49,245 bases of DNA from a virus (taxonomy: Duplodnaviria > Caudoviricetes), in IMG/VR virus record IMGVR_UViG_3300027653_000016, positions 1 to 49,245 of that record; one strand, given 5' to 3'. Under the pieces are notes generated by a model. It did no database searches, was not told the DNA's origin, and worked only from the letters and a program-made list of their open reading frames with translations. Shown piece after piece: positions 1 through 49,245 of this stretch. Positions within the stretch are counted from its first letter, which is position 1. Each line of letters begins with the position of its first letter. The position numbers and the translations under genes were made by a program.

Positions 1-973
1 CAGCGAATCCGCCATCGGCGTCGGTAGTGACGTCGACCGTGGCGACTTCATCGCCGCCGGATCCGGGCGCGCCGGACATGAGCGCGACTGTCCCGGCTGT
101 CTCTGCGGGGAACCCGGCGCCGGTGACCGTGATCGTGCGCGCCGCCTCATCACCCGACGAATCCACCTCTGTCTTGTCGGGCGTGATAGTCGCGCCGGTG
201 ACGGCGCCGACAGTGACCGGGGAATCGTCGTGCACGACGCTGCCGACAGTCACCACCACGTGGTAGTCGCCTTCGGCCGTACCCTCCGGTACGGAAAGTG
301 CCGCATCCACGAATGCGCCTTCAGCGTCGGTGGTGAATTCTGCGGAACCGACGGCTTCCCCTGCCTCGCCCGGCGCGCCGGGGACTAGCTCGGCAATACC
401 TTCAGTGTCAGCTGGGAACCCGGAACCTCCGACGGTGAACGTGTCGCCGGGTGCGGCTTCGGCCGGTTCCACGGTCACGGACGGCTCGTCACCGCCATCA
501 CCGACCGTTATGCCGGTGTTGTCGCTGGTCACGTCACCCACGGTCACGACGATGTGGTAATCGCCCGGTTCCGCGCCTTCGGGTACGACGACGGTGGCGC
601 CGTCGAACGCGCCGTTGGCGTCGGTAGTGACGGTCGCCGAATCGACTTCGTCGCCCGTCTCACCCGGCGCACCGGTCATCAGGGTGACGGTGCCTTCCGT
701 GCTGGCGGGGAATCCGGTACCGGACACGCTGATCGTGCGGGCGGCTTCATCTCCGCTCGGGTCGACCTCGGTTTTGTCCGGCGTGACTTCGCCGTCTTCG
801 CCGTCCACGGGAAGCGGCAGGTCGAATGTGACGGTTTGGGTGGCGTCGCTTTGCTCATGCGACACCGTCACCGTCCCGGACGTCGCGGTCTCTTCGTATT
901 GTTTGGTGTCTTCGCCCGAGTCGGGTAGACCGGTTTTTGGTTCGTCGTCGTCCCACTGCACACGCACTGTCAT
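1..973 (-). CDS. Ig-like repeat virion decoration/fibre protein, 5' part (runs off window start)
   Basis: Variant copy of 46177..48207; ATG at 973 overlaps TGA of the 190-aa gene. Confidence 0.85.
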   Translation of the reverse strand, partial: MTVRVQWDDDEPKTGLPDSGEDTKQYEETATSGTVTVSHEQSDATQTVTFDLPLPVDGEDGEVTPDKTEVDPSGDEAARTISVSGTGFPASTEGTVTLMTGAPGETGDEVDSATVTTDANGAFDGATVVVPEGAEPGDYHIVVTVGDVTSDNTGITVGDGGDEPSVTVEPAEAAPGDTFTVGGSGFPADTEGIAELVPGAPGEAGEAVGSAEFTTDAEGAFVDAALSVPEGTAEGDYHVVVTVGSVVHDDSPVTVGAVTGATITPDKTEVDSSGDEAARTITVTGAGFPAETAGTVALMSGAPGSGGDEVATVDVTTDADGGFA

Positions 974-1542
974 GGCGTAGTGCCCCCTTCGTCGTTGTTG
1001 GTTGTCCATGTGACTAGCGCTGTGTATCCGGTCGGGTCGGACGGATCCGCCTCCACCGAGGCATTCATGTCGCCGCCGTCGCCGCAGTCGGTCGCGTTCC
1101 ACACGACACGGGCGGTGTACCCGGTCGGGTCGGACGGGTCCGCTTCGACTGTGGCTGTGAGACAGTCCGTGGCGTCTAGCGGCGTCGTGAACTGCACGAC
1201 TGCCCGGCGCGTGATGTCGTCGCTATCGGTGACGATGACCGTGTGCGGGCCATCCTCCTCGGCCGTGAAAACTTTCTGCGTCGAACCCGTCTCCGGCTGG
1301 TTCACTAGTGGCGCGTCGCTATCCCACTGGATATCGACCGCACCGAAACCGGTGTTATCCCACGTCAGCACGACGGTGCGGCCGGTCGGGTCGTCGGGTG
1401 ACGCGGCGACTTCGGCCGTGATCTGGTCCGGGCATCCGGTCAGGTCGACGCGCGCCATCGCGATCTGGTCCCCCGCGACGGCTTTCACGATCGCGACGGG
1501 GCACCCTGACTGGTACGTATGGGTGAGCGTGTAATCAGCCAT
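970..1542 (-). CDS. 190-aa Ig/PKD-like tail accessory (adaptor) protein
   Basis: Follows tail tube; THTY motif at N-terminus, one full Ig-like domain, two ADPSDPTGYTA repeats; conserved in second copy. Confidence 0.8.
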   Translation of the reverse strand: MADYTLTHTYQSGCPVAIVKAVAGDQIAMARVDLTGCPDQITAEVAASPDDPTGRTVVLTWDNTGFGAVDIQWDSDAPLVNQPETGSTQKVFTAEEDGPHTVIVTDSDDITRRAVVQFTTPLDATDCLTATVEADPSDPTGYTARVVWNATDCGDGGDMNASVEADPSDPTGYTALVTWTTNNDEGGTTP

Positions 1543-1545
1543 ATC

Positions 1546-2604
1546 TTAGTCACCCCACGTGATTGTTGGTGTTTCATCGGCGCCCGTCACCGTGGCGACG
1601 ACCTCAAGCGGAACTTCGCCCGACGACGGTTCGACCGTCAGGGTCATGGTCTGCGGCACGCACATACGCTCCGCCCGGTACAGCTGTTCGTTACCGTCCG
1701 CCCACACGCCAATCGTGTAGCAATCTTCTTCGGTGTACGTGTGGCATAGCTCGGTTTCGCCGGTGATTTCTTCGGTCGGGGACCCGTCGCCCCAGTCGAT
1801 AACCCAATCGCCCTCGTCAGTGATGAGCGTGGCGCACACGGTCATATCGTCGTCGCCGGGCAGAAGCAGCAGCGGCGGCGCGAGCGGGTTCGACAGCGGC
1901 ATACCGCCGCAGTACGGTTCGGGAGGCTCCACGTCGATCGCCATCATGCGAAGCGCCGAGTCGACTGGTACCGGGGTAATAAACGGGCCCGGTATTGGCG
2001 GTTCGCCGGGGTTCATCTGCACGTCATACGGGCCGACGCCCCAGCGCGCTCCTGACTGTCCGGTGGCGGTCCAACGGTACGGGTTCGCTTCGCCGCCGAA
2101 TGTCATTTCTTCGCCGCCAAGGTTGGCGTTAGTGACGAAGAATGATGCGACGTAACCCCACTGGCCTTCGCCGCCCGTTTCCGGGTTGTCGCAGGTACCG
2201 CCTTCGCTGTAGATCTGTGTCCACATCTCCACTGCGACAGCGCGGCCGGAGTCGCCGACGGAACCGTACCGACGGTCGAAACCAACGATGTTGGCCATGT
2301 AGTCGTACACCGCTGTATACGAATCGTTTCCTTCGGCGACTAGCTCCGGGTCGATACGGCATAGACCGATATCCCACGAAACCGATTCCAAAGCCGCGTC
2401 GGGTGTGGCGCTGGCGCAAATCGTTCCGTCGGCGCGGGTCATCGACCATGCCTCGGGCTCGGTGACGTTTGCCGACAGCGTGATGTCAGTGATCGAGTTA
2501 GTGACGAAAACGCTGTTCGGACCATAGATTGGTCGCCCACAGTTGTCCAGAAGTGTGAAGCGGACGACTGTGGGCCACATGGGTGTGAAACATGTGGTTG
2601 CCAT
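1546..2604 (-). CDS. Major tail (tube) protein with C-terminal PKD domain
   Basis: Position after capsid genes; RFTLLDNCGRP N-terminus and WGVGPYDV motif of actinophage tail tubes; IDWGDGS...HTY PKD motif. Confidence 0.8.
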   Translation of the reverse strand: MATTCFTPMWPTVVRFTLLDNCGRPIYGPNSVFVTNSITDITLSANVTEPEAWSMTRADGTICASATPDAALESVSWDIGLCRIDPELVAEGNDSYTAVYDYMANIVGFDRRYGSVGDSGRAVAVEMWTQIYSEGGTCDNPETGGEGQWGYVASFFVTNANLGGEEMTFGGEANPYRWTATGQSGARWGVGPYDVQMNPGEPPIPGPFITPVPVDSALRMMAIDVEPPEPYCGGMPLSNPLAPPLLLLPGDDDMTVCATLITDEGDWVIDWGDGSPTEEITGETELCHTYTEEDCYTIGVWADGNEQLYRAERMCVPQTMTLTVEPSSGEVPLEVVATVTGADETPTITWGD

Positions 2605-2892: not shown

Positions 2893-3840
2893 CTATATGG
2901 TTTGAGATAGGTCTACATTGACCGCAGCCAGCGGGCAGCTGTACGTGACGGTGTATGTGCGTTCCGCGATGGCGCGTGTGGCGTTCTGCTCACGGTCAAA
3001 CGTCGTCCACCGGTCGCCCGGCGTGACTATCGGGGACCGCCAGATACGCACATTGCCCGTCACATAGATCCACGCGGTCATACCGTCCGCCACCGGAACC
3101 CGCTCCGCCGGTGCTTGCTCCCCTGGCGGCACGTTCGTATACCCGCGGCCGAACGCCCACCCGGCGCCGACCTGCGTCTCCAGCTGCGGACCATTGCGCA
3201 CAATGTACGAACGGAAAAACGGGTACGCCTCACGCGGCGCATGAATCACGCCCGGCGAACCCGAATCGCGCAGCGCAAACTCGATATACGACAGCGCGAC
3301 CGCCGGATGCACCGGATCCGCCCCCGCAGGAAGCTCAGGCTCACCCAGCGACAGGTTCGGCTCCGCGCCGCAAAAACCCGACTGAAAAACCCGCTCAACC
3401 GCCTGCCACTCCGTGGATTCGAGCCGCTCTCGTGCACGCGCTTGCGCGCGGTCCATCGCGTAACCGCCAGCGCACGGCGGCGACACGTTATAGACCGTGA
3501 ACGGCTGCGACGTCACGAAATCCTGATCGACCTGGTCATCGAACTTGGAACCGTTGGGGTCGTCGAACACTTCCCATTCCGCCCGTGCCGTGTACCCGGT
3601 CGGGTCGGACGGGTCGGCGGTGACGTCGAGCTGTATCCCGCCGCCCGGGGGGAGACCGGGGGTGCATGTGTGGTCCCAGCAGCGGGACGGTACGCACCCC
3701 TCGGTCTCATATTCCACACCGGCATACGACGCGCGCGACGCCGACGTCACCACGGACGCTTGCGACTGCAGCCCGTATTCCCAGCGTGGTCCGGGTGGCG
3801 GGACGCCCGCCCATACGGGCGCCCCGGTCACAGGAGCCAT
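2893..3840 (-). CDS. Major capsid pentamer protein
   Basis: Directly after hexamer gene; PFTVY, GVIHAPR, WIYVTG, AERTY motifs typical of actinophage pentamer proteins. Confidence 0.75.
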   Translation of the reverse strand: MAPVTGAPVWAGVPPPGPRWEYGLQSQASVVTSASRASYAGVEYETEGCVPSRCWDHTCTPGLPPGGGIQLDVTADPSDPTGYTARAEWEVFDDPNGSKFDDQVDQDFVTSQPFTVYNVSPPCAGGYAMDRAQARARERLESTEWQAVERVFQSGFCGAEPNLSLGEPELPAGADPVHPAVALSYIEFALRDSGSPGVIHAPREAYPFFRSYIVRNGPQLETQVGAGWAFGRGYTNVPPGEQAPAERVPVADGMTAWIYVTGNVRIWRSPIVTPGDRWTTFDREQNATRAIAERTYTVTYSCPLAAVNVDLSQTI

Positions 3841-3859
3841 AACTACTGCCCCCTTCTAC

Positions 3860-5629
3860 CTACGCTGCCACGGCCGCGGGCGTCGGGCACTCGATGATCG
3901 ACTGTCCACCGGTGACGCCGTTGGCGCATATCGGGATTTCGGCGAGCATCGCGCCGTAGCAGCGCGGGATGACCTGCCATGCGGTTTCGGCGAAAATTCC
4001 GAGTTGGTTGTTGTGTTCGAGCAGCGTGTAGTCGTACTGGCCGGTGACGCGCACGATTTCGTCACGCGCGAGCAGGAATGTACCGGCCGGGTACATGAGG
4101 ATCTGAACGCTCGTTGGCCACTGCATTCCCGCGTCGAACTGCGTCGATCCGCCGAAACCGGCCGTGTTGGCGTCGGTGTAGGCGTCCTGCCAGTCGTATA
4201 CCCACTGTGCACGGATGTTACGCGCGGCAAGGTACCGCTCGAGGTCAGCGTCGGTGACCGCGAGCAGGTCGACGCCGTTGCGTTTGGCCAGGTCGGACCG
4301 CATGACACCGCGAAGCCACAGCGGCATCACCGCTTCAATAATCGTGGTCTCGGGCAGACGCCGACGGTACCGCAGCGCCTCCGCCATGAGTTCTGCGCCT
4401 TCAAGCACCGATGCGGTCGCGGCGTTGAGCGGACCAAAAAGCCCGTCGGTCGGTGTGTACGGGGCGTTCCCCGGTTGGTTCGCCAGCGCGAACTCGACCA
4501 TCCTGGCGATGATGTTGGCGTTCAACCGGTGCTCGAAAATCCACATGAGCAGGTCGAGGTAGTACGTGATCAGCTCAGGGTAGGCGTAGTTCGCCAAGAT
4601 CGAGTTAGTGATGCACACGTGGCACGTGTCGAGACGGTGCTCATCGAATTCCACACACGGGATCGGGTAGCACACTTTCGGTTCGGTGCGGCCGATGATC
4701 TCGGACTCTGTGTAGCAGTCCATGAAGTCGCCGCCCCACAGGTCCTCAAGACCGGGCTCGATCGGGAACCGGATGCCGCCGCGGTTGATGGTGATACCGG
4801 GAAGGTCGATCAGCCCCGCGAGCGGCGGGATCGGGCAGAACGAGTAATCGATTTCGCTGGGCGCGCACCATCCGGTGTTTTGGAACGTCCCGTCCGGCTC
4901 ACGCACTAGGCGCGACGTGTCGGTGACCCTGTTGAACACCTTCTGAACCTCGGTAGGCGCCATGTCGGGTGATACGAACGGACGTTGTTCTTCGTCTGGC
5001 TGCCGCTTGTACACCAGTAGACCGGACGACGATTTCGATTTTCCGTTTCCGGACAGCGTGCGCATGCGCTCGCCGACGCTACGCCCCAGTTCGTTGACGT
5101 CGGTGAAAAGCGACCCCATGGGTTTATCGGGAAGGTCAGCCGCGGCGTACGCCTGGAATTGCGCGGCGGGGTTCGCCTTCGTCACCGCGTGACGCGGCAT
5201 GGAGTTGAGGGCGTTACCGAACGTTTTTGCGGTCTGCAGCGACATCGCTCCGGCCATGTCGGGGCGGCGTTCCTCGGCGACAGGGGTGTCTTCGGGGACG
5301 TCGATGCTGTCGGGAACCACGACATCGGTACCCGCACCGCCATCTTCGCCGGTTTCGGTTTCGGCGTTATCGGCGGTGTCCGCGGTGTCGTCTGCCGGCG
5401 CCATCGCCTTGGCGATATCCACCAGCGACCGCAGTCGGCGCGCCTCATCCGCAGTCGGACGCTTCTTCTTACCCAGCTCCCGTGCCTGTTCCTCGGCGAT
5501 GACGCCGATAGCGTCGCGCTCACGCTGCGTGAGGTCTTCGGCATCGGTGGCCGCGATCCGCACCCGCTTACCTTCGTCGTCGTGCTTCAGTGCGCTGACG
5601 GTCTCGATTAGCCGTTCGAGTTCCTTCAT
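3860..5629 (-). CDS. Major capsid (hexamer) protein with N-terminal scaffold-like extension
   Basis: GWCAPSEIDYSFC, DLPGITINRGGIRF, QWVYDWQ, YPAGTF motifs; strong RBS. Confidence 0.88.
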   Translation of the reverse strand: MKELERLIETVSALKHDDEGKRVRIAATDAEDLTQRERDAIGVIAEEQARELGKKKRPTADEARRLRSLVDIAKAMAPADDTADTADNAETETGEDGGAGTDVVVPDSIDVPEDTPVAEERRPDMAGAMSLQTAKTFGNALNSMPRHAVTKANPAAQFQAYAAADLPDKPMGSLFTDVNELGRSVGERMRTLSGNGKSKSSSGLLVYKRQPDEEQRPFVSPDMAPTEVQKVFNRVTDTSRLVREPDGTFQNTGWCAPSEIDYSFCPIPPLAGLIDLPGITINRGGIRFPIEPGLEDLWGGDFMDCYTESEIIGRTEPKVCYPIPCVEFDEHRLDTCHVCITNSILANYAYPELITYYLDLLMWIFEHRLNANIIARMVEFALANQPGNAPYTPTDGLFGPLNAATASVLEGAELMAEALRYRRRLPETTIIEAVMPLWLRGVMRSDLAKRNGVDLLAVTDADLERYLAARNIRAQWVYDWQDAYTDANTAGFGGSTQFDAGMQWPTSVQILMYPAGTFLLARDEIVRVTGQYDYTLLEHNNQLGIFAETAWQVIPRCYGAMLAEIPICANGVTGGQSIIECPTPAAVAA

Positions 5630-5678
5630 GTTTCCCCCTCCGGGGTAGTGTCGCCCCCTCCCTTAGGGGGTTTACCTG

Positions 5679-10358: not shown

Positions 10359-10405
10359 CCCCCCCTTGCGTAGTACTTTATGTGTGGTATAGTTAAAGTA
10401 CACCA
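10359..10405 (+). promoter_or_regulatory. Sigma70-type promoter with inverted-repeat operator (copy 1)
   Basis: TTGCGT-16nt-TATAGT; GTACTTTA-N13-TAAAGTAC; 47 bp identical to 12416..12462. Confidence 0.85.
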
Positions 10406-10423
10406 CAAAGGAAAGGGCACAAA

Positions 10424-11584
10424 ATGACCATCATCGAAATCGCCAAAGTCCAGTTCCCCGCCTGGAAAGAGAGCGTCGACAAAATCAACGCCCGCGCACG
10501 CCGCCTGCGCTTCGATGGCGGAATCACGTACACCATCCTCGGCGAAAAACAATGCCACGGAAACTTCGGCGGCATCGAAGCCCAGTACACGGCCTACCGG
10601 GTAGATGTCGAAATCGGCGTCCTCCACTACCAGGGATGGGACGTTATCGCGGTTATCGACACCGACAGCCAGACCGGCGTGACCACCGTTGATTCGATGC
10701 CCGGCTACGAAGGACAGTTCAGTCGTGAGTCTGTGCGGATGCGTATGTGTGACGAGTGTCAGGTCATCCGCAAGCGCAACCGTGTTTTGGTGGTGCGTGA
10801 GGCCGCGACGGGCAAGACCATGCAGGTCGGGGGTTCGTGCGTGCGTAACTATGTTGGCTGGTCCCCGACCATGCCGCGCCTGGACTTGCTGCTTGGCTTG
10901 AACGAGTTCCTCAACTACCCGGTGGGCCGCCCGGAGGCTAGCGACACTCTCACTGTTCTGGCCGTGGCGCACGACATTGTCGCCCAGCACGGATATCTTC
11001 CGGTGTCGAGTGCCGAGTACTACGAGATACCGACGTCAGAGCGCGTGAAAGACGCCCTGGCTAGCTCGGGGTACCGGTGCGCCATGGACCCTGAAGAGGC
11101 CATGCGCCTTGCACGCGGCACGGTCGAATGGGTTATGGCCAGCGACGACGACAGCGACTATATGGCTAACCTCCGCGCGGTCGCGGCTAGTGATGAGGTG
11201 TCGGACAGGCATGTAGGAATTTTGGCGTCAGCGGTGTATGCGCAGGAGCGGGAGGCGCGCCTTGAGGCTGAGCGGGCGGCCGAGAAAGCGTCGAAGCCGG
11301 TGTCGGAATGGGTCGGCGAGGTTAAAGAGAGGCGCGACTTCATTTTGACTGTGGACCGTGTGAGCGTGTTCGAAACACAGTTTGGTTTCACCACTTTGTA
11401 CAGCATGTCTGATGAGGACGGGAATATTTTCAAGTGGTTTGCGTCTCGTCCGTCTCTGGGTAGTGAGTCGGGTGTGCGGGTGACGGTGAAGGCGACGGTT
11501 AAGTCTCATTCTGAGTGGGATGACGTGAAGGAAACTCATGTGACGCGGTGCAAGCTGCTGTCTAGTGAGCCGTTGGCTGCGTAG
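10424..11584 (+). CDS. Phage protein with Zn-finger-like motif and probable C-terminal OB-fold
   Basis: CDEC...QVGGSC motif; C-terminal SEWVGEVKER...FKWFAS beta domain; RBS; ends LAA. Confidence 0.8.
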   Translation: MTIIEIAKVQFPAWKESVDKINARARRLRFDGGITYTILGEKQCHGNFGGIEAQYTAYRVDVEIGVLHYQGWDVIAVIDTDSQTGVTTVDSMPGYEGQFSRESVRMRMCDECQVIRKRNRVLVVREAATGKTMQVGGSCVRNYVGWSPTMPRLDLLLGLNEFLNYPVGRPEASDTLTVLAVAHDIVAQHGYLPVSSAEYYEIPTSERVKDALASSGYRCAMDPEEAMRLARGTVEWVMASDDDSDYMANLRAVAASDEVSDRHVGILASAVYAQEREARLEAERAAEKASKPVSEWVGEVKERRDFILTVDRVSVFETQFGFTTLYSMSDEDGNIFKWFASRPSLGSESGVRVTVKATVKSHSEWDDVKETHVTRCKLLSSEPLAA

Positions 11585-11624
11585 TTGGCGCCTGTCGGGA
11601 GGGGGGGATTCTTAGTGAGGCACC

Positions 11625-11669
11625 CCCCCTTCACTTTGTAATTTATCTATGGTATAGTCAAAGTACAAA
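11625..11669 (+). promoter_or_regulatory. Promoter/operator repeat (copy 2), overlapping a G7/C7 hairpin
   Basis: TTTGTAATTTA-tctatggTATAGT-CAAAGTACAAA. Confidence 0.75.
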
Positions 11670-11686
11670 TACAGAGAGGAAACGAA

Positions 11687-12373
11687 ATGCTGACACGCAT
11701 CATCGAAACCGGTCAAATCGAGATGACCCTTCGTACAGTACCGCCAGCGAAAACGGCAAACGTCACCTACGGAGGATCACATAGCGATTTTCGAGCCGAA
11801 ATAGACGCGCTGGGAGACGGTTACATTCGCCTCACCGCACTGTCAGAAGCTTACGGTGATGAGGTATTCGCACACAAGAATCATGAGATGGCGTGGTCAT
11901 TCAAGCATGAGTCATCGGTAGGAGACACTACCTACTACCGGATGACATGCCACCGACTGATCGATCTGTGTGATCGTGAGTACGAGTGCGACCCGGACGA
12001 ATTTCCGGACATGGCGGCTGAGCGTGACATGCTATCCGAATTCACCGCTGATGATGTCGAGGTAGCGCGTACGTGCGACACGGTGTTTTACCGCGATAGC
12101 AGCGGTGGGACATGGATGGAGTCCCTTTCGAGAGGCAGGGGTTATGTGTCGCTTGATCGTGCTTACCGCATGGTCCTAGATGGTTCGGACGTCATGGTGA
12201 GTGCTTCGGCGTCTCCTGCATGGCAGGTCATCGCTTCGATTAAGGCCATGATGGACGATTACGGGACAGTCAGTGGTGATTCCGTTGATTCCGTTGAGTC
12301 CGTTGAGGTTGAGGCCTTGCGGAGGCTCGATTTGGATTCGATTTTGAGCAGCATGGTTGTGTATAGAGATTGA
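11687..12373 (+). CDS. Hypothetical protein, paralog of 13021..13686
   Basis: RBS; shared ERDML, WQV/WEV and EAL..LD/QAL..VD blocks. Confidence 0.8.
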   Translation: MLTRIIETGQIEMTLRTVPPAKTANVTYGGSHSDFRAEIDALGDGYIRLTALSEAYGDEVFAHKNHEMAWSFKHESSVGDTTYYRMTCHRLIDLCDREYECDPDEFPDMAAERDMLSEFTADDVEVARTCDTVFYRDSSGGTWMESLSRGRGYVSLDRAYRMVLDGSDVMVSASASPAWQVIASIKAMMDDYGTVSGDSVDSVESVEVEALRRLDLDSILSSMVVYRD

Positions 12374-12415: not shown

Positions 12416-12462
12416 CCCCCCCTTGCGTAGTACTTTATGTGTGGTATAGTTAAAGTACACCA
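12416..12462 (+). promoter_or_regulatory. Promoter/operator repeat (copy 3)
   Basis: Identical to 10359..10405. Confidence 0.85.
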
Positions 12463-12481
12463 AGAGGGAAGGAACAAAAAA

Positions 12482-18683: not shown

Positions 18684-19214
18684 CTAGTCCCTTGCGTATC
18701 GTTCGACGAGCTCGTCTAGCTGATCTTGTGACCAGTAGCGGCGGCGGCGGAGCCACCGATACTTGGATTCGACGAAAAAGCGTCGGCACCGGTCAGGGTT
18801 GCTGGAGTAGTTGATGACGGTGTTTAGTGGGATTCCGGTCTGCTCGGCGATGTCGTGGGTGGTGTATACGGGTTCGCCGTCTATCCATGCCTGTCCGTCG
18901 TGGTCGATGACGCGTCGCTGTAGTCCAGCGTCATTGATGAGCCGGAATCCTCGCGTGCGTGCGCATTCTTTGTCGTAGTCGATGATTGAGTTGAGGTCGT
19001 AAAACATCGTGCCTGGTCCGGGGAATGTTTCTGGGTCGGCGGTTTTTTTTAGGACGTGTGGTATTTGCAGTTCTGATTTTTTGCGTGTGAAGGTCACGGG
19101 TGATAGTCCCAGGACTTTTGCTAGTCCGGTTTTGTCCCATAGGTGTGTGTCGGTGGGTGGGTTTGGGTGGGCGTAGTCGTAGGGGTCGGGTGGTGTCGGT
19201 GGTGTTTGTGTCAT
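18684..19214 (-). CDS. Probable DNA-binding protein with two HTH-like segments
   Basis: LAKVLGLSPVTF and DIAEQTGIPLNTV; leaderless-type ATG after TACACT. Confidence 0.7.
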   Translation of the reverse strand: MTQTPPTPPDPYDYAHPNPPTDTHLWDKTGLAKVLGLSPVTFTRKKSELQIPHVLKKTADPETFPGPGTMFYDLNSIIDYDKECARTRGFRLINDAGLQRRVIDHDGQAWIDGEPVYTTHDIAEQTGIPLNTVINYSSNPDRCRRFFVESKYRWLRRRRYWSQDQLDELVERYARD

Positions 19215-19220
19215 GCCCAA

Positions 19221-19258
19221 TAGTGTACCACTTTATGTATGGTATAGTTAACGTACCC
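19221..19258. promoter_or_regulatory. Divergent promoter pair including operator-repeat copy 4
   Basis: ACTTTATGTATGGTATAGTTAACGTAC on +; TACACT -10 on -. Confidence 0.7.
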
Positions 19259-19281
19259 CACTGGAGTGAAAGGAACACTCA

Positions 19282-20569: not shown

Positions 20570-21910
20570 ATGTCTTCCGAGAACACGGATAACACACCTG
20601 TCTATGTGTCGGGACGGAAAACACCCCCATTCGCGCAAGCCGCACACTGGGTACTCGTTTCCGACGAAATATCCCCCTCCGCTAAAGCGCTCTACGCAGT
20701 CCTATGCGGGCTCCTAGCTAAGGGAGAGCGTGACACATTCGCATCGCGTGAGGCTCTAGCCGGGATCCTGGGGTGCAGTGACCGCAGCGTGTGGAACTGG
20801 ACCAAAGAGCTAGAGAAAATCAACGCGATCACGGTCGAGGTGCACAAAAACCGTGACGGACGCGCGAACGTCTACCACGTCCACGAGCTACCACCGCCGG
20901 GATATGAGGGTGTCATGTCGCTGTGGGCGAAGCGCGACGAGGTCGTATCGGGTATCGCGGACCGGAAAAAAGCGAAGACCGAAGCCGAGGAAAACTCCAG
21001 TTCACCGGGGGTGCGGCAAAATCTGCCGGACCCTAACGGGAATAGCAACCCCGAGGGGGGTCCGGCAATATTTGCCGGAGGGGTCCGGCAATATTTGCCG
21101 GAGGGGTCCGGCAATATTTGCCTACCACCCAATAACGGTGTTCAAGAACCATCAAAAACCCCCCCTGTGGTTGATGAACGTATCGTGAGGGAACCCGCCG
21201 TACGGACAGACGAAGATCCAATCGACGAAGCGCCGGATTTTATGCGTGACGCTGATCGCGTAGCCGTCGAAGAAGTCATCGCCGCCTCGGCCGCCGAGAA
21301 CCCACCGACCGTGGAGACCACCCAGGGGGGGGATAAAAACAACGAAAACCAAAACCCCAACCGCACGATCGCCGGCGAACTCCTCCGCGAAGCATTCGCC
21401 GGCGTCAACACCGGAGACCCCGATAGTGCAGACATCAAACGAAAGAAACTGGATCTCGTCGATGAGCTCACTCGCAAACTCGATTCCGGTGTACCAAAGC
21501 GTGACGTGCGTGAACGCCTCGGCGGGCTCGCGTCGACACAATCACCGATCGGTGTGGCGCTGTACCGCGTCCGCAACCTGACGTCGGTGACAGGTCCTAG
21601 TCAACCCTCGTCTGCGCCGAGGTGGTGCGGAGAGTGTGACGAGTCAACGCGTATGGCCGAAACTTCCGAGTCGATCCCCTACCGGTGCCCGAACTGCAAC
21701 CCGCTAGCTGGTGAGCCTCGTGTGTCCAGATCAAATGGTGCCGAAGACGCGCTCTACCGGACACGTGGAATTGAAGCGCAGCGCGCTCATTCTAGGCGGA
21801 TCCGCGACGAACTGAAGGCGCGCCGTGACGAGCGTAAAGCGGCGGAAGCGCGGCTCGAAGCGCAGAAAGAAGCGCGGAAGTCCCGCGAATCGCTTCCGAC
21901 CGAAAGCTAG
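20570..21910 (+). CDS. Replication initiator (N-terminal HTH, C-terminal Zn ribbon)
   Basis: ISPSAKALYAVL...SREALAGILGCSDRSV...LE.I.AI...NVY; WCGEC...RCPNC; internal iterons. Confidence 0.82.
   Translation: MSSENTDNTPVYVSGRKTPPFAQAAHWVLVSDEISPSAKALYAVLCGLLAKGERDTFASREALAGILGCSDRSVWNWTKELEKINAITVEVHKNRDGRANVYHVHELPPPGYEGVMSLWAKRDEVVSGIADRKKAKTEAEENSSSPGVRQNLPDPNGNSNPEGGPAIFAGGVRQYLPEGSGNICLPPNNGVQEPSKTPPVVDERIVREPAVRTDEDPIDEAPDFMRDADRVAVEEVIAASAAENPPTVETTQGGDKNNENQNPNRTIAGELLREAFAGVNTGDPDSADIKRKKLDLVDELTRKLDSGVPKRDVRERLGGLASTQSPIGVALYRVRNLTSVTGPSQPSSAPRWCGECDESTRMAETSESIPYRCPNCNPLAGEPRVSRSNGAEDALYRTRGIEAQRAHSRRIRDELKARRDERKAAEARLEAQKEARKSRESLPTES
21006..21122. repeat. Iterons / putative replication origin
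   Basis: Three tandem 23-bp units GGGGTCCGGCAATATTTGCCGGA (third truncated) plus a degenerate copy at ~21006. Confidence 0.8.
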
Positions 21911-22033: not shown

Positions 22034-22079
22034 CCCCCCCTTGCGGTGTACTTTATCTATGGTATAGTTAAATTACACC
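22034..22079 (+). promoter_or_regulatory. Promoter/operator repeat (copy 5)
   Basis: CCCCCCCTTGCG-GTGTACTTTA-tctatggTATAGT-TAAATTACAC. Confidence 0.82.
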
Positions 22080-22105
22080 GCAAGGGAAAAGAAAAGGGAC
22101 ACGAA

Positions 22106-22885: not shown

Positions 22886-23028
22886 CCACCACCACCACGA
22901 GGGGCAAAAAATAACCTCCCCCTCCCCGGTATGATGTGTACTGCTTAGCGCCTCCCCCGAGCCGCGAAGCACAGTCACGGCCCCCGCTCCTACGCGCGGG
23001 GGCCGTTTTCGTGTCACCCACACCGTCC

Positions 23029-23044
23029 ACCTATCTAGATAGGT
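23029..23044. promoter_or_regulatory. Putative GntR operator 1
   Basis: Perfect palindrome ACCTATCTAGATAGGT abutting a TACCAT -10. Confidence 0.75.
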
Positions 23045-23055
23045 ACCATGGGTGC

Positions 23056-23883
23056 ATGACTAACACCGTTGACTACCCCACCATTGACACGACCTCATCC
23101 ACCCCACCATCAGTACAAATCGCCGACCACTACCGCCACGCCATCACCCAAGGCCGGTACGCCATCGACGAGCGCCTTCCACGCACCGACATCATCGCGA
23201 CGCAAACCGGGTGCGGATACTCCACCGTCCACGACGCCATAAACGCGCTCGCAGCCGAAGGCCTCGTCACGAGACAAAACGGGAAGGGCACGATGGTGCG
23301 TTCAGCACCACGACCACGCGTCGTCGATGCGGACAGGTACAAGCGAGAAATCGAAGCCCGCGACCGCGGGCATGTACCCACGTCATCGTCAATCGCGCGC
23401 GACATCGACGTACCGTGGGAAAACTACTCCGTGCAGGTACTTGACTCGTCGACAACGGCAGCGACGCACCGTCAAGCCGAACTCATGGGCATCAACCACG
23501 GCGAACCTGTCTACCGAAGGTGCACACTCGGGCGCGCATACGGCCACACGCCGCTGCACATCAGCACCTCACTCATGCACCCCTCTCACGTTCGCGGCAC
23601 GTTCTTCATGCACCCCGACTACACACACCGCGCCGGCGGCACGATCGAGGAGCTACGCGTTCTCGGGCTGCGGCCGGACTCGGGCCGTGAGTGGCTGCGG
23701 TCACGCGATGCGACGGCCGAAGAGGTCAAATTTTTGAAGCTGTACCGGGGGGCGGCCGTGTATGAGCTCACCCGTGTTTTCCTGCGGAAACGGGAAGTTG
23801 TCGAGTCGTCAGAGCTTGTTATGCCCGCGATGGGGGTCACCTGGACGTGGGCTCTAGACCTCACATCCAAGACACCTATCTAG
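23056..23883 (+). CDS. GntR-family (HutC/UTRA) regulator, KorA/TraR-like
   Basis: QIADHYR..I.QG....RLP...LAAEGLVTRQNGKGTMVR HTH plus UTRA-like domain. Confidence 0.9.
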   Translation: MTNTVDYPTIDTTSSTPPSVQIADHYRHAITQGRYAIDERLPRTDIIATQTGCGYSTVHDAINALAAEGLVTRQNGKGTMVRSAPRPRVVDADRYKREIEARDRGHVPTSSSIARDIDVPWENYSVQVLDSSTTAATHRQAELMGINHGEPVYRRCTLGRAYGHTPLHISTSLMHPSHVRGTFFMHPDYTHRAGGTIEELRVLGLRPDSGREWLRSRDATAEEVKFLKLYRGAAVYELTRVFLRKREVVESSELVMPAMGVTWTWALDLTSKTPI

Positions 23884-32581: not shown

Positions 32582-34141
32582 CTAAAGGTCACGAGGAAGC
32601 CGTCCATACCAGGGGCGCATTCGCTCCCACACCCGTGCCGCGGCCATGACCATCTCGTCACAACCGCGCGCACCCACAATCTGCATACCCACCGGCATAC
32701 CGTCATAGCAACCCGCTGGCAGCGAGACGGCGGGATCACCGGTCCAGTTCTGAAGCGCTGTGCAGCACCACCCCAGCTGAGGATTGATCGGGACGCCATT
32801 AATCTCTGACGGGCCGACCGTGGAACCGTCGCCCGCGTTCGGTAGCCGCTGCGGCAGGCACGCGATCGCCGGCCCCACGATCAGGTCATACCCGGACGGG
32901 TTGTCGTTCACGGACCATAGCGCCGCGAACGTGTCGCGTATCGCCTGCGAATCCGACTCCACATCGCGAATGTCGGTCGCTTTGAGTTCGAAGCCGAGAT
33001 TTATGAGTTCGAGAATTTTCGGCGTGAGCACTGATGGGTCGTACATGACGTCGATACCCATCGCCCCGAAATAATTCACAATGGAGCCTGCGTAGAGGCT
33101 GCCCATCCCGTACTCGAACATCTCGACCACGTCGTCGACGTTCACGGGGCGGCCGCGTATCGGCATCATCGCCTCCGACAGCCCAAGATGCACCGGCTCT
33201 ACGGTCGCCCCCGCCTGCTCGAAAGCGCAGATGTTGTCGTCGATGACGCTCTTGACTTCGTCTTCGACTGGGTAGATATCCCAGTCCAGCGTGTACCCAA
33301 TACGCAGGCCACGCACGCCCGCCTCAAGGTTGCGCTCGCATTCGAGTGGCTTGAGCTGGCCGAATGGGTCGGGACTGTAAGGAACTGACATGAGATCGCC
33401 CAGTACCGCCGCGCCGTACACGGTCCGGTCGATCGGCCCCACATGCAACAGCGGGTTCACCGGGAACGGAGGAACCCCCTGCGTAATCCGGTTGTACGAA
33501 GGCTTCCAGCCCACCACGCCACAAGGAGCCGCGGGTATACGAACCGAACCGCCCGCATCACTACCCTCAGTCGACGCGACCAGGAACGCTGCCGCCGCCG
33601 CGGCCGAACCCCCCGACGAACCTCCGGCGTTGTAGCCGATCCGAAACGGCGTAGACGTGTCTCCCCACGCCGGCGACGCAGTGATGCCTTTATGCCCGAA
33701 TTCGCACGTCGCCGTCTTACCCAGGGATATCGCTCCCGCTTCGAACAGCCGGCGGTTATATATCGCGTCCGCCGGCGGCAAAAACTCATACCTCTCTTTG
33801 AACACGCGGCTACCGAAGGTGTTCCTTACGCCTTCTTCCCAGTCGAACAGGTCTTTCGTCGCGATAGGGAGCCCTTCGAGCCGTCGGGCGGTACCGTTCG
33901 CGTAGCGCGCGTCCGCCGCGACCGCTTGATCCATCGCCTTATCGATCTGCGTCAGCACGAAGGCGTTAATCATCGGGTTGATGCGTTCGATACGTTCCGC
34001 ATACGCCTGCACCGCTTCGCTCGGTTTCACTTGCCCGCGGCGGAAATACTGCAGCAGGTCCCGCATCGGAAGAAACGGGATGTCTTCGAATTCGGGCGGG
34101 TTCGGCTGGCATGACTGCCACGCTGGCCAGCAATTTTGCAT
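32582..34141 (-). CDS. Amidase-signature (GatA-like) amidase
   Basis: PIATKD, GGSSGGSAAA, GSDAGGSVRIPA..CG, GMPVGMQIVG. Confidence 0.93.
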   Translation of the reverse strand: MQNCWPAWQSCQPNPPEFEDIPFLPMRDLLQYFRRGQVKPSEAVQAYAERIERINPMINAFVLTQIDKAMDQAVAADARYANGTARRLEGLPIATKDLFDWEEGVRNTFGSRVFKERYEFLPPADAIYNRRLFEAGAISLGKTATCEFGHKGITASPAWGDTSTPFRIGYNAGGSSGGSAAAAAAFLVASTEGSDAGGSVRIPAAPCGVVGWKPSYNRITQGVPPFPVNPLLHVGPIDRTVYGAAVLGDLMSVPYSPDPFGQLKPLECERNLEAGVRGLRIGYTLDWDIYPVEDEVKSVIDDNICAFEQAGATVEPVHLGLSEAMMPIRGRPVNVDDVVEMFEYGMGSLYAGSIVNYFGAMGIDVMYDPSVLTPKILELINLGFELKATDIRDVESDSQAIRDTFAALWSVNDNPSGYDLIVGPAIACLPQRLPNAGDGSTVGPSEINGVPINPQLGWCCTALQNWTGDPAVSLPAGCYDGMPVGMQIVGARGCDEMVMAAARVWERMRPWYGRLPRDL

Positions 34142-46176: not shown

Positions 46177-48207
46177 CTACCGCTTTTTCGTAGCCCGCTT
46201 CGCGGACGCCTTACGCGCCGCCGCGGCCGCCGTGGTGATTTGCAGCGTCTCCGACCACAGGCTATCGGCGCTGGCAGTCCCGTCGCCGACGGCTTTCACT
46301 TGGGTGTCGTACGTGGTTCCCGGGTTTAGTGACGCCATCGTGTAGTCGGGTGTGGCCTGCTGCTCCACTTCGTTCCAGATGTTCGTGTCGGGGTTGAGGA
46401 TCCGCCACACGTACCCCTGCGCGCCGTCGACAGTGTCGGCGGTGACGTCGACGGTTTCGGCCGTCTCGTTCGATGCGGACAGGTTAGTGGGCGCCGGTAG
46501 GCCGTCGAGTCCGGTGACGGTGACGGTCTCCGATTCGCCGGTGGTTTCACCCGTGACGGCTAGGACGTGGTACTCGCCGGCGGCCTGGTTTTCGGGCACG
46601 ACCAACGCCGTTTCGGGAAGGTTGCCGTCCGCGTCGGCAGTGACATCGGCGCGCGCGACCTGGGCACCGCCTCCGCCTGCTGCACCCGACATGAGCGCGA
46701 CACTTCCGGCGGTTTCGGGGTCGAACCCGGTACCGGAGACGGTGAGTGTGCGGGCAGCTTCATCTCCGGTGCCGTCGACTTCAGTCGGGGCCACCGTTAC
46801 CGCGGCTTCGCCCCCGCCGCCGTCGGTCACGGTGATGGCAGTGTCGTCGGAGACGGTCTCGGCGACCGTACCGACAAGGTGATAGTCGCCGGCAGCTTGC
46901 GCCTCCGGAACCACTAGGGCCGCGCCGGTAAACGCGCCGTCGACGTCGGTAGTGACGTCGACCGACGCGACGGCCTCGCCGGCTTCGCCCGGCGCGCCAG
47001 GCACAAGTTCGACAGTCCCGGCGGTCTCGGCCGGGAACCCGGCACCGTCGACCGTGATAGTCCGGGCCGCTTCATCACCCGACGAATCGACTTCGGTCAC
47101 GTCCGGCGTGAGTGTTGCTTCCGCCGCACCGCCGGTCACGGTGATAGCCGTGTCATCGACAACTGTTTCGCCCACGGTCGCGACCAGGTGGTAGTCGCCT
47201 TCGGCTTGGCCCTCGGGCACTACGACCGCGGCGTCAGCGAATCCGCCATCGGCGTCGGTAGTGACGTCGACCGTGGCGACTTCATCGCCGCCGGATCCGG
47301 GCGCGCCGGACATGAGCGCGACTGTCCCGGCTGTCTCTGCGGGGAACCCGGCGCCGGTGACGGTGATCGTGCGCGCCGCCTCATCGCCCGACGAATCCAC
47401 CTCCGTCTTGTCGGGCGTGATAGTCGCGCCGGTGCCGGCGCCGACAGTGACCGGGGAATCGTCGTGCACCACACTGCCGACAGTCACCACCACGTGGTAG
47501 TCGCCTTCGGCCGTACCCTCCGGTACGGAAAGTGCCGCATCCACGAACGCACCTTCGGCGTCGGTGGTGAATTCCGCGGACCCGACAGCTTCCCCCGCCT
47601 CGCCTGGCGCACCGGGCACGAGTTCAGCGATACCTTCGGTATCAGCCGGGAATCCGGTACCGCCGACGGTGAAAGTTTCGCCGGGAGCGGCCTCGTCCGG
47701 TTCCACGGTCACGGACGGCTCGTCACCGCCACCACCGACCGTTATGCCGGTGTTGTCGCTGGTCACGTCACCCACGGTCACGACGATGTGGTAATCGCCA
47801 GGTTCCGCGCCTTCGGGTACGACGACGGTGGCGCCGTCGAACGCGCCATTGGCGTCGGTAGTGACGGTCGCCGAATCGACTTCGTCGCCCGCCTCACCGG
47901 GTGCACCGGTCATGAGCGTGACGGTGCCTTCCGTGCTGGCGGGGAATCCGGTACCGGACACGCTGATCGTGCGGGCGGCTTCATCCCCGCCCGGATCCAC
48001 CTCAGTTTTGTCCGGCGTGACTTCGCCGTCGCCGCCGTCCACGGGAAGCGGCAGGTCGAATGTGACGGTTTGGGTGGCGTCGCTTTGCTCATGCGACACC
48101 GTCACCGTCCCGGACGTCGCGGTCTCTTCGTATGTTTTGGTGTCTTCGCCCGAGTCGGGTAGACCTGTTTTCGGTTCGTCTTCGTCCCACTGCACACGCA
48201 CTGTCAT
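46177..48207 (-). CDS. 676-aa acidic decoration/fibre protein: half Ig domain, five ~100-aa Ig(IPT/TIG)-like repeats, FN3 domain, basic tail
   Basis: Five TV.G.GF...TTD..G.F...VPE...GDYH repeats; LPAPTNL...LNPGTTY..QVKA FN3; ATG overlaps upstream TGA. Confidence 0.85.
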   Translation of the reverse strand: MTVRVQWDEDEPKTGLPDSGEDTKTYEETATSGTVTVSHEQSDATQTVTFDLPLPVDGGDGEVTPDKTEVDPGGDEAARTISVSGTGFPASTEGTVTLMTGAPGEAGDEVDSATVTTDANGAFDGATVVVPEGAEPGDYHIVVTVGDVTSDNTGITVGGGGDEPSVTVEPDEAAPGETFTVGGTGFPADTEGIAELVPGAPGEAGEAVGSAEFTTDAEGAFVDAALSVPEGTAEGDYHVVVTVGSVVHDDSPVTVGAGTGATITPDKTEVDSSGDEAARTITVTGAGFPAETAGTVALMSGAPGSGGDEVATVDVTTDADGGFADAAVVVPEGQAEGDYHLVATVGETVVDDTAITVTGGAAEATLTPDVTEVDSSGDEAARTITVDGAGFPAETAGTVELVPGAPGEAGEAVASVDVTTDVDGAFTGAALVVPEAQAAGDYHLVGTVAETVSDDTAITVTDGGGGEAAVTVAPTEVDGTGDEAARTLTVSGTGFDPETAGSVALMSGAAGGGGAQVARADVTADADGNLPETALVVPENQAAGEYHVLAVTGETTGESETVTVTGLDGLPAPTNLSASNETAETVDVTADTVDGAQGYVWRILNPDTNIWNEVEQQATPDYTMASLNPGTTYDTQVKAVGDGTASADSLWSETLQITTAAAAARKASAKRATKKR

Positions 48208-48776
48208 GGCGTCGTGCCCCCTTCGTTGTTGTTGGTTGTCCATGTGACTCGCGCGGTGTACCCGGTCGGGTCGGACGGGTCCGCCTCCACCTGGGCGTTC
48301 ATGTCGCCCCCGTCTCCGCATCCGGTTGCGTCCCACACGACACGGGCGGTGTACCCGGTCGGGTCGGACGGGTCGGCTTCGACTGTGGCTGTGAGACAGT
48401 CCGTGGCGTCTAGCGGCGTCGTGAACTGGACAACCGCCCGGCGCGTGATGTCGTCGCTATCGGTGACGATGACCGTGTGCGGGCCATCCTCCTCAGCCGT
48501 GAAGGCTTTCTGCGTCGACCCCGTCTCCGGCTGGTTCACCAGTGGCGCGTCGCTATCCCACTGGATATCGACCGCACCGAAACCGGTGTTATCCCACGTC
48601 AAAACGACGGTGCGCCCGGTCGGATCGTCGGGTGACGCGGCGACTTCGGCCGTGATCTGGTCCGGGCACCCTGTCAGGTCCACGCGGGCCATCGCTATCT
48701 GGTCGCCCGCGACGGCTTTCACGATCGCGACTGGGCAACCGGACTGGTACGTATGGGTGAGCGTGTAATCAGCCAT
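48204..48776 (-). CDS. 190-aa adaptor protein, variant copy
   Basis: Six amino-acid differences from 970..1542. Confidence 0.8.
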   Translation of the reverse strand: MADYTLTHTYQSGCPVAIVKAVAGDQIAMARVDLTGCPDQITAEVAASPDDPTGRTVVLTWDNTGFGAVDIQWDSDAPLVNQPETGSTQKAFTAEEDGPHTVIVTDSDDITRRAVVQFTTPLDATDCLTATVEADPSDPTGYTARVVWDATGCGDGGDMNAQVEADPSDPTGYTARVTWTTNNNEGGTTP

Positions 48777-48779
48777 ATC

Positions 48780-49245
48780 TTAGTCACCCCACGTGATCGT
48801 TGGTGTTTCATCGGCGCCCGTCACTGTCGCGACGACCTCAAGCGGGACTTCGCCCGACGACGGTTCGACCGTGAGCGTCATCGTCTGCGGCACGCACATA
48901 CGCTCCGCTCGATACAGCTGTTCGTTACCGTCCGCCCACACGCCGATCGTGTAGCAATCTTCTTCGGTGTACGTGTGGCAGATTTCGGTTTCGCCCTGGA
49001 TTTGTTCGGTTGGTGAACCGTCTCCCCAGTCGATAACCCAATCGCCCTCGTCAGTGATGAGCGTGGCGCACACGGTCATATCGTCGTCGCCGGGCAGAAG
49101 AAGCAGCGGCGGCGCGAGCGGGTTCGACAGCGGCATACCGCCGCAGTACGGTTCGGGAGGCTCCACATCGATCGCCATCATGCGAAGCGCCGAATCCACC
49201 GGAACCGGGGTAATAAACGGGCCCGGTATCGGCGGCTCGCCGGGA
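48780..49245 (-). CDS. Major tail protein, 3' part (variant copy, truncated by window end)
   Basis: Matches C-terminus of 1546..2604 with three substitutions in the listed ORF part. Confidence 0.8.
   Translation of the reverse strand, partial: PGEPPIPGPFITPVPVDSALRMMAIDVEPPEPYCGGMPLSNPLAPPLLLLPGDDDMTVCATLITDEGDWVIDWGDGSPTEQIQGETEICHTYTEEDCYTIGVWADGNEQLYRAERMCVPQTMTLTVEPSSGEVPLEVVATVTGADETPTITWGD

Follow-up and report, generated by a model that had tools for sequence, protein, structure and literature searches.

Gene order of the locus

The window analysed in this study, a stretch of 49,245 nucleotides taken at its whole length, is one phage genome with a G+C content of 61%, and the virus record to which it belongs was 98% complete according to CheckV. 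The structural genes were found in a minus-strand module that contains the portal gene, the head morphogenesis and protease-like genes, the capsid genes, a gene for a protein of 92 aa, the tail genes, the fibre gene and the gene of a head-tail adaptor (Table 1). The 92-aa gene is located between the second capsid gene and the major tail gene. The ends of the window, 1-2010 and 47235-49244, overlapped with an identity of 94%, not 100%, and are likely from two strains of a circularly permuted genome that were joined in one contig.

Table 1. Features of the structural module and their positions in the window
Feature	Position	Strand	Basis
Major capsid (hexamer) protein	3860..5629	-	phrog_777 major head protein, E 3.9e-114
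Second capsid protein (pentamer), 315 aa, HK97 fold	2893..3840	-	phrog_779, E 1.3e-43; tblastn annotations; Foldseek
Whole 30-residue insertion, pentamer residues 63-92, with Gly/Pro linker, predicted E-loop	3565..3654	-	profile and model
Donor hairpin (first two strands of Ig-like domain), pentamer residues 69-92	3565..3636	-	profile matches
Major tail protein, PKD-like domain	1546..2604	-	phrog_792; weak PKD match, E 0.14
Adaptor, 190 aa	970..1542	-	alignment A2; structure model
Intact seven-stranded Ig-like domain of adaptor, residues 41-121	1180..1422	-	VIA-align and model
Adaptor orphan hairpin 1	1093..1164; second copy 48327-48398	-	hairpin profile, codon comparison
Adaptor orphan hairpin 2	1000..1071; second copy 48234-48305	-	hairpin profile, codon comparison
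Fibre, partial copy starting at 973, cut downstream by the window start	812..973 (acceptor half)	-	
N-terminal acceptor half-domain of the partial fibre copy	812..973	-	26.9 bits vs 7.8 shuffled; A4
Fibre, full gene, 676 aa	46177..48207	-	Pfam MG2, TIG, fn3
Acceptor half of the full fibre	48046-48207	-	27.1 bits, acceptor profile

Several other features of the window were also noted. An enzyme of the amidase-signature family (PF01425, E 7.6e-69), which is unusual cargo for a phage, is encoded at 32582-34141 on the minus strand, and an ORF similar to it was found in the tail module (3279-4919) of the related locus L001. A 66-nt AT-rich element that resembles a promoter or operator is present in five copies upstream of genes (10359-10424, 11624-11689, 12416-12481, 19214-19279, and 22034-22099). 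Moreover, a 23-nt repeat occurs four times at 21008-21125, inside a helix-turn-helix-like ORF (20570-21910), possibly as replication iterons, and a GntR-UTRA regulator is encoded at 22936-23883.

An Ig-like domain split between adaptor and fibre

The adaptor consists of the putative second half of the PKD-like domain of the tail protein, an intact Ig-like domain and two orphan hairpins. In its AlphaFold2 model, pLDDT values were 79-96 over residues 41-120 and 45-61 over the hairpins. Comparison of residues 37-121 by VIA-align gave Z scores of 7.2-8.4 to FN3, PKD and macroglobulin sandwiches, which are middling values that mark the fold class and not the family. Foldseek searches with the adaptor model returned nothing at E <= 0.001. 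The fused PKD domains of a distant pentamer protein, P0118, matched the acceptor profile with an E-value of 3.6e-7, which ties the Ig-like domain of the adaptor to the PKD family.

The first two strands of the intact adaptor domain form a motif of which the adaptor has two other copies, both without the continuation of the domain. The start of the fibre aligns without gaps (alignment A4) to the intact domain from its third strand on; the end of the hairpin is precisely the point at which the fibre gene sets in, and the fibre provides all strands that follow. Together, one hairpin and the first 54 residues of the fibre make up the equivalent of a single intact adaptor domain, divided into a two-strand donor and an acceptor. 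When the six frames of the window were searched with a hairpin profile made from adaptors only, the adaptor and the second capsid protein were the only matches, and a stray hit of 10.4 bits was within the shuffled range. The corresponding acceptor profile matched only the adaptor and the N-terminus of the fibre. Neither a hairpin in the fibre nor any other acceptor-like ORF was found in these six-frame searches. Alignment A2 comprised 13 adaptor sequences. The adaptor had no match in genome_contigs and none among the cultured phages, so no cultured model was found for the PKD-like pair. A search with the fibre N-terminus found only two near-identical proteins. Behind its acceptor half, the 676-aa fibre contains five TIG/MG2-like repeats, an FN3 domain and a basic tail. 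This Ala/Lys/Arg-rich tail (46177-46230, minus strand) closes the fibre and is kept in the window, L001 and L005 despite an acidic body.

A similar arrangement was found at the other end of the adaptor. At its C-terminus, the major tail protein has a second, truncated half of a PKD-like domain (approximately 1549-1653, within 1546-1653; read by eye), whose last residues are Trp-Gly-Asp, and the tail proteins of two other loci, L003 and L005, have the same ending. The adaptor starts with the putative remainder of that domain (approximately 1438-1542). The junction between the tail protein and the adaptor is in frame in the window and in the -1 frame in L003 and L005. Recoding at this junction was rejected, because one rule cannot serve both arrangements. 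On sequence grounds, the differing frames favour a second joint, probably non-covalent, between the tail protein and the adaptor.

The second capsid protein and its display site

The structure model of the second capsid protein had a mean pLDDT of 86.6, and its best Foldseek match was the HK97 capsid protein 1ohg (E 3.5e-7), with 180 matches at E <= 0.001. By tblastn, homologues were found mainly in phages that infect Gordonia, Microbacterium and Streptomyces, and some of them are annotated as major capsid pentamer proteins. The annotation of these homologues, which are less than 35% identical to the protein of the window, suggests a position at the five-fold vertices. PDB sequence searches identified no solved relative of the protein, Pfam had no match for either the pentamer or the adaptor, and a search of viral_contigs with the single pentamer sequence gave no match. 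The available text of PMC7150772 contains no description of a separate pentamer protein.

Compared with a core profile made from 52 short pentamers, residues 63-92 of the pentamer are the sole insertion, at core position 60. Alignment with homologs had been suggested in a previous sequence-only reading of this DNA, and it bore out the insertion proposed there: the 30 residues lie beyond the core profile and are absent from P0005 (alignment A1). That reading had given the segment as 3571-3640; the peptide that it quoted comprises residues 66-91, or 3568-3645, and is about 5 nt wider. Of the Gly/Pro linkers that it described on both sides of the hairpin, the one on the N-terminal side was recovered, and the C-terminal side has a short Asp-Asp-Pro instead.

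The adaptor-only hairpin profile matched the pentamer hairpin with 40.2 bits and profile A2 matched it with an E-value of 7.4e-8. A chance match was excluded, as the best of 20 shuffles of the six-frame translation of the window reached 11.0 bits. An assembly artefact was also rejected, because the insertion lies outside the overlapping window ends and recurs in P0001-P0003. P0001, which is 98% identical to the pentamer of the window, differs in one core residue of the hairpin. The identity of the pentamer DNA to approximately 1115-1140, reported before, is exact: a 26-mer that encodes the turn of the motif, of which the pentamer has one copy and the adaptor three, occurs in four exact copies on one strand (3590-3615, 1115-1140, and at 48256 and 48349). 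All 8 core codons are identical, for which the probability from codon bias alone is approximately 0.001 per comparison, the copies not being independent. The codon identity is modest evidence that the hairpin may have been copied or converted.

In the pentamer model, the region of the insert (residues 61-100) has no secondary structure and a pLDDT of 52-69. It lies between the strands at residues 42-45 and 108-119 and is followed by the long spine helix at residues 129-154. The site is taken as the E-loop because of this order of HK97 elements in the model, rather than from a residue-level alignment to HK97. The segment is predicted to lie outside the capsid fold, which agrees with the earlier expectation that it is not buried, and the model predicts surface exposure of the hairpin. 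At the same site, 36 of the 160 pentamers, counted from the list, have an insertion of 78-315 residues, i.e., a whole domain. Pfam identified PKD at this site in P0070 and in the cultured phage Pam4, and most other insertions had no Pfam match. The insertion place in the window is a display site on the pentamer. In Pam4 (L022, ON014756), the pentamer-family gene with the whole PKD domain in this loop (4563-5630) is annotated as hypothetical. In addition, the C-termini of P0115 and P0132 seemingly carry a single first strand of an Ig-like domain and are possible further donors.

Relocation and co-occurrence in relatives

The hairpin profile matched 10 of the 160 pentamers. In a tree of 37 hand-chosen rows, the pentamer of the window belongs to a clade of 16 rows with a support of 100/100, a count that includes the window and two added loci. 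Its members are 37-98% identical to the protein of the window, and 13 of them have the hairpin. It is located in the E-loop, i.e., the site of the window, in four rows, just after the spine helix in eight rows and at the C-terminus in one row (P0004), and these three sites fall in separate supported groups of the clade. Two of the three hairpin-free rows have a whole domain at the site of the window. Pentamer and adaptor hairpins matched within their own genome in 3 of 4 cases, in two of which the margin was 1-2 score points; P0004 is presumably paired with P0015.

In both of the other readable loci, L003 and L005, the pentamer has the hairpin at the second site, the adaptor is the same, and the acceptor half forms the start of the fibre. 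As for homologs that might have the segment and lack the fibre gene, as considered in the sequence-only reading, hairpin and acceptor-started fibre were thus paired in 2 of 2 loci; P0005, P0006, P0027, P0087 and the hairpin-free close pentamers were covered as proteins. The acceptor profile covered only positions 2-29 in the fibres of L003 and L005, with 14.1 and 16.8 bits, respectively, and the pentamer hairpin of L005 scored only 5.1 bits. The fragment with L002 is 26% complete and stops at the pentamer. Neither half was found in eight cultured-phage loci, a manual selection from 192 and 543 matching records.

Split FN3 domains in Streptomyces loci

Two distant pentamers end in an apparent half FN3 domain, and a genome scan with both led to three Streptomyces loci (L013, L014, and L015). 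In all three, the pentamer ends in the first half of an FN3 domain and is followed by the tail gene, and the second half opens the fibre gene, which lies two steps further on. The three fibre starts matched positions 49-83 of Pfam fn3. Of the six donor stretches, four matched positions 2-36, all below the Pfam cut-off, and two of the three pentamer tails had no Pfam match. A second FN3 first half follows the tail gene in the -1 frame (L013, 9940-10130; L014, 9950-10132; and L015, 9930-10140), preceded in each locus by a conserved short motif. In these loci, a programmed frameshift likely adds an FN3 docking half-domain to the tail protein. Finally, in the pentamer P0087, for which viral_contigs had no locus, the internal site used in the window is occupied by an insertion that matches TIG positions 1-26 of 84, with an E-value of 5.8e-5.

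Predicted binding and proposed docking

Complex prediction with the whole pentamer and residues 1-58 of the fibre gave a score of 0.53 (runs of 0.48, 0.66, and 0.53), and the best of three controls gave 0.00. The runs shared at least 81% of their contacts, and the pLDDT of the partners was at least 78. The mark used for complex prediction was reached by 116 of 157 solved and by 2 of 215 mismatched pairs, and at a score of 0.60 or less it was reached by only 18 of the 157 solved complexes and by both of the mismatches that passed. The value of 0.53 is weak support, and split-domain halves can pass by their likeness to solved Ig folds. The output was a score with no contacts, so it does not identify the hairpin as the interface. 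Binding of the hairpin to the fibre is weakly predicted by the modelling, while complementarity, insertion, relocation and convergence are established at the level of sequence.

Given that the capsid protein carries a 24-residue part of a domain and the fibre starts with the rest, the fibre likely docks by rebuilding the domain. Non-covalent domain completion is probably the means by which one fibre type is docked on both head and tail. The hairpin would be displayed in the predicted surface loop of the pentamer protein; both of its ends are on the same side, and it would therefore fit a loop and leave the capsid fold intact. The free N-terminus of the fibre would be an incomplete sandwich that closes on the pentamer hairpin. 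The same fibre would also dock on the two hairpins of the adaptor, which in turn may hang on the major tail protein through the second split domain. Up to 55 sites would be available per head if the 11 pentamers are made of this protein. By analogy with Hoc-like proteins, the Ig/FN3 repeats of the fibre would function in weak adhesion. The docking tag proposed from the DNA alone is supported, and both the relocated hairpins and the convergence on FN3 strengthen that reading.

Alternatively, the fibre may join the adaptor only, either covalently by a -1 frameshift or non-covalently, with the pentamer hairpin being a tolerated, non-functional copy that was recombined into a permissive loop. This is improbable. 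The pentamer loop does tolerate many insertions, the exact identity over 26 nt suggests that the hairpin was copied, and in the window, L003 and L005 an open -1 frame precedes the fibre start. However, the pentamer hairpin is kept in 13 of the 16 clade rows and at three positions, and all four adaptor genes have a G-rich stretch like a ribosome site and an overlapping stop/start, with no slippery heptamer of the X XXY YYZ type in their last 120 nt. A frameshift also cannot serve the inner hairpin of the adaptor. Similarly, the internal site in the pentamer is not explained by frameshift fusion, as had been argued before: the 315-residue protein has the hairpin at residues 69-92, with the fibre gene located four genes further downstream.

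The hairpin could also act alone on the capsid, by pairing with neighbouring hairpins or capsid strands and bracing the vertex, or by binding the host surface, with no part for the fibre. E-loops are described as making long-range contacts with other capsid subunits in the available part of 10.1101/2022.09.09.507160, and five hairpin copies would sit close around a vertex. In the monomer model of the pentamer, however, the insert has neither structure nor packing, a bracing role is hard to square with three hairpin positions, and the fibre start lacks precisely the strands of the hairpin; there is little likelihood that the hairpin acts without the fibre. It also seems quite unlikely that domain completion is correct but the site is not the vertices, with the gene product being, for instance, a minor capsid component elsewhere in the shell, or that the catcher is another protein. 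The pentamer role comes from annotation, and sequence searches identified no solved relative, but the protein has an HK97 fold beside a separate hexamer gene, in a gene order like that of the annotated phages, and the window has no other acceptor-like ORF.

More broadly, the chances are about even that phages with separate hexamer and pentamer proteins have repeatedly evolved tag-and-catcher pairs by splitting an Ig-like domain (PKD-like, FN3, and possibly TIG). The hairpin of 21-24 residues would be a position-independent tag, in a loop or at a terminus; one fibre gene would decorate both vertices and tail tube, and the hairpin could be used as a loop-insertable affinity tag for foreign proteins. 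The proposed joint is a concrete, testable explanation for the attachment of Ig-repeat fibres to both heads and tails across this large group of phages. The pentamers also present an evolutionary series at one capsid site, from an empty loop to a whole fused domain and to a half domain plus a fibre encoded by its own gene. Having shifted between two loops and a terminus in evolution, the hairpin is a ready candidate for a loop-insertable tag, and also for modular phage display.

Comparison with known systems

Chaperone-usher pili and SpyTag/SpyCatcher both have an incomplete Ig-like fold to which a second chain contributes the missing peptide. In the pili, this is one N-terminal strand, and a chaperone and an usher lead to a polymer. 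Different from the pilus system, in which a single-strand N-terminal donor is on the acceptor-bearing subunit, the fibre of the window has the acceptor part and no hairpin. SpyTag/SpyCatcher is an engineered split CnaB domain in which Lys and Asp/Asn form an isopeptide bond with a catalytic Glu. A Lys is kept in all four fibre starts and the hairpin contains Asp; no Lys or Glu column is invariant in alignment A4. Frameshift-added Ig domains continue behind the end of a gene in another frame, whereas the hairpin of the window is internal.

Hoc of T4, pb10 of T5 and gp17 of N4 are elongated, Ig-like capsid decoration proteins that are thought to aid adhesion, according to the available text of PMC7602432. 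Similar to them, an Ig-repeat protein would be placed on the head here. However, these proteins bind the folded shell surface (Hoc by its own capsid-binding domain, at hexon centres; PMC7602432), whereas in the anchor proposed here fibre and capsid protein would each contribute a part of one domain. The pentamers with whole fused Ig-like domains, i.e., those of Pam4 (ON014756), P0070, P0118 and P0052, use the same display site or the C-terminus and the same PKD-like family. Their fusions are covalent and complete, whereas the capsid gene of the window keeps only the first two strands.

The available parts of PMC7602432, PMC7150772, PMC13370021, 10.1101/2022.09.09.507160 and 10.1101/2022.09.20.507954 do not mention a split-domain capsid anchor. 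Moreover, no description of hairpin completion inside a capsid protein, of its relocation or of convergence across Ig families was found in the open full-text literature, a scope outside which most subscription papers fall. Hairpin completion as a principle has one solved example, a baseplate; its capsid use, relocation and convergence are seemingly undescribed in the open literature.

That baseplate, with BppU-BppA of phage Tuc2009, is the closest solved precedent. A PDB sequence search found no sequence relation between the two systems. In the available account of Tuc2009, a C-terminal BppU hairpin of 25 residues completes the beta-sheet of BppA (PMC4742702). In that pair, a hairpin of about 25 residues and a beta-sandwich of about 56 residues in an accessory protein make up one composite Ig-like domain (PMC4742702). 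The donor and acceptor of the window likewise add up, in sequence, to one Ig-like domain. The Tuc2009 acceptor, as described there, is C-terminal in a carbohydrate-binding protein, whereas that of the window is N-terminal in a fibre that apparently serves both head and tail. The Tuc2009 donor extends the C-terminus of a baseplate protein, whereas that of the window is inserted in an internal loop of a capsid protein with an HK97 fold and, different from the hairpin described for Tuc2009, is found at three positions among its relatives.
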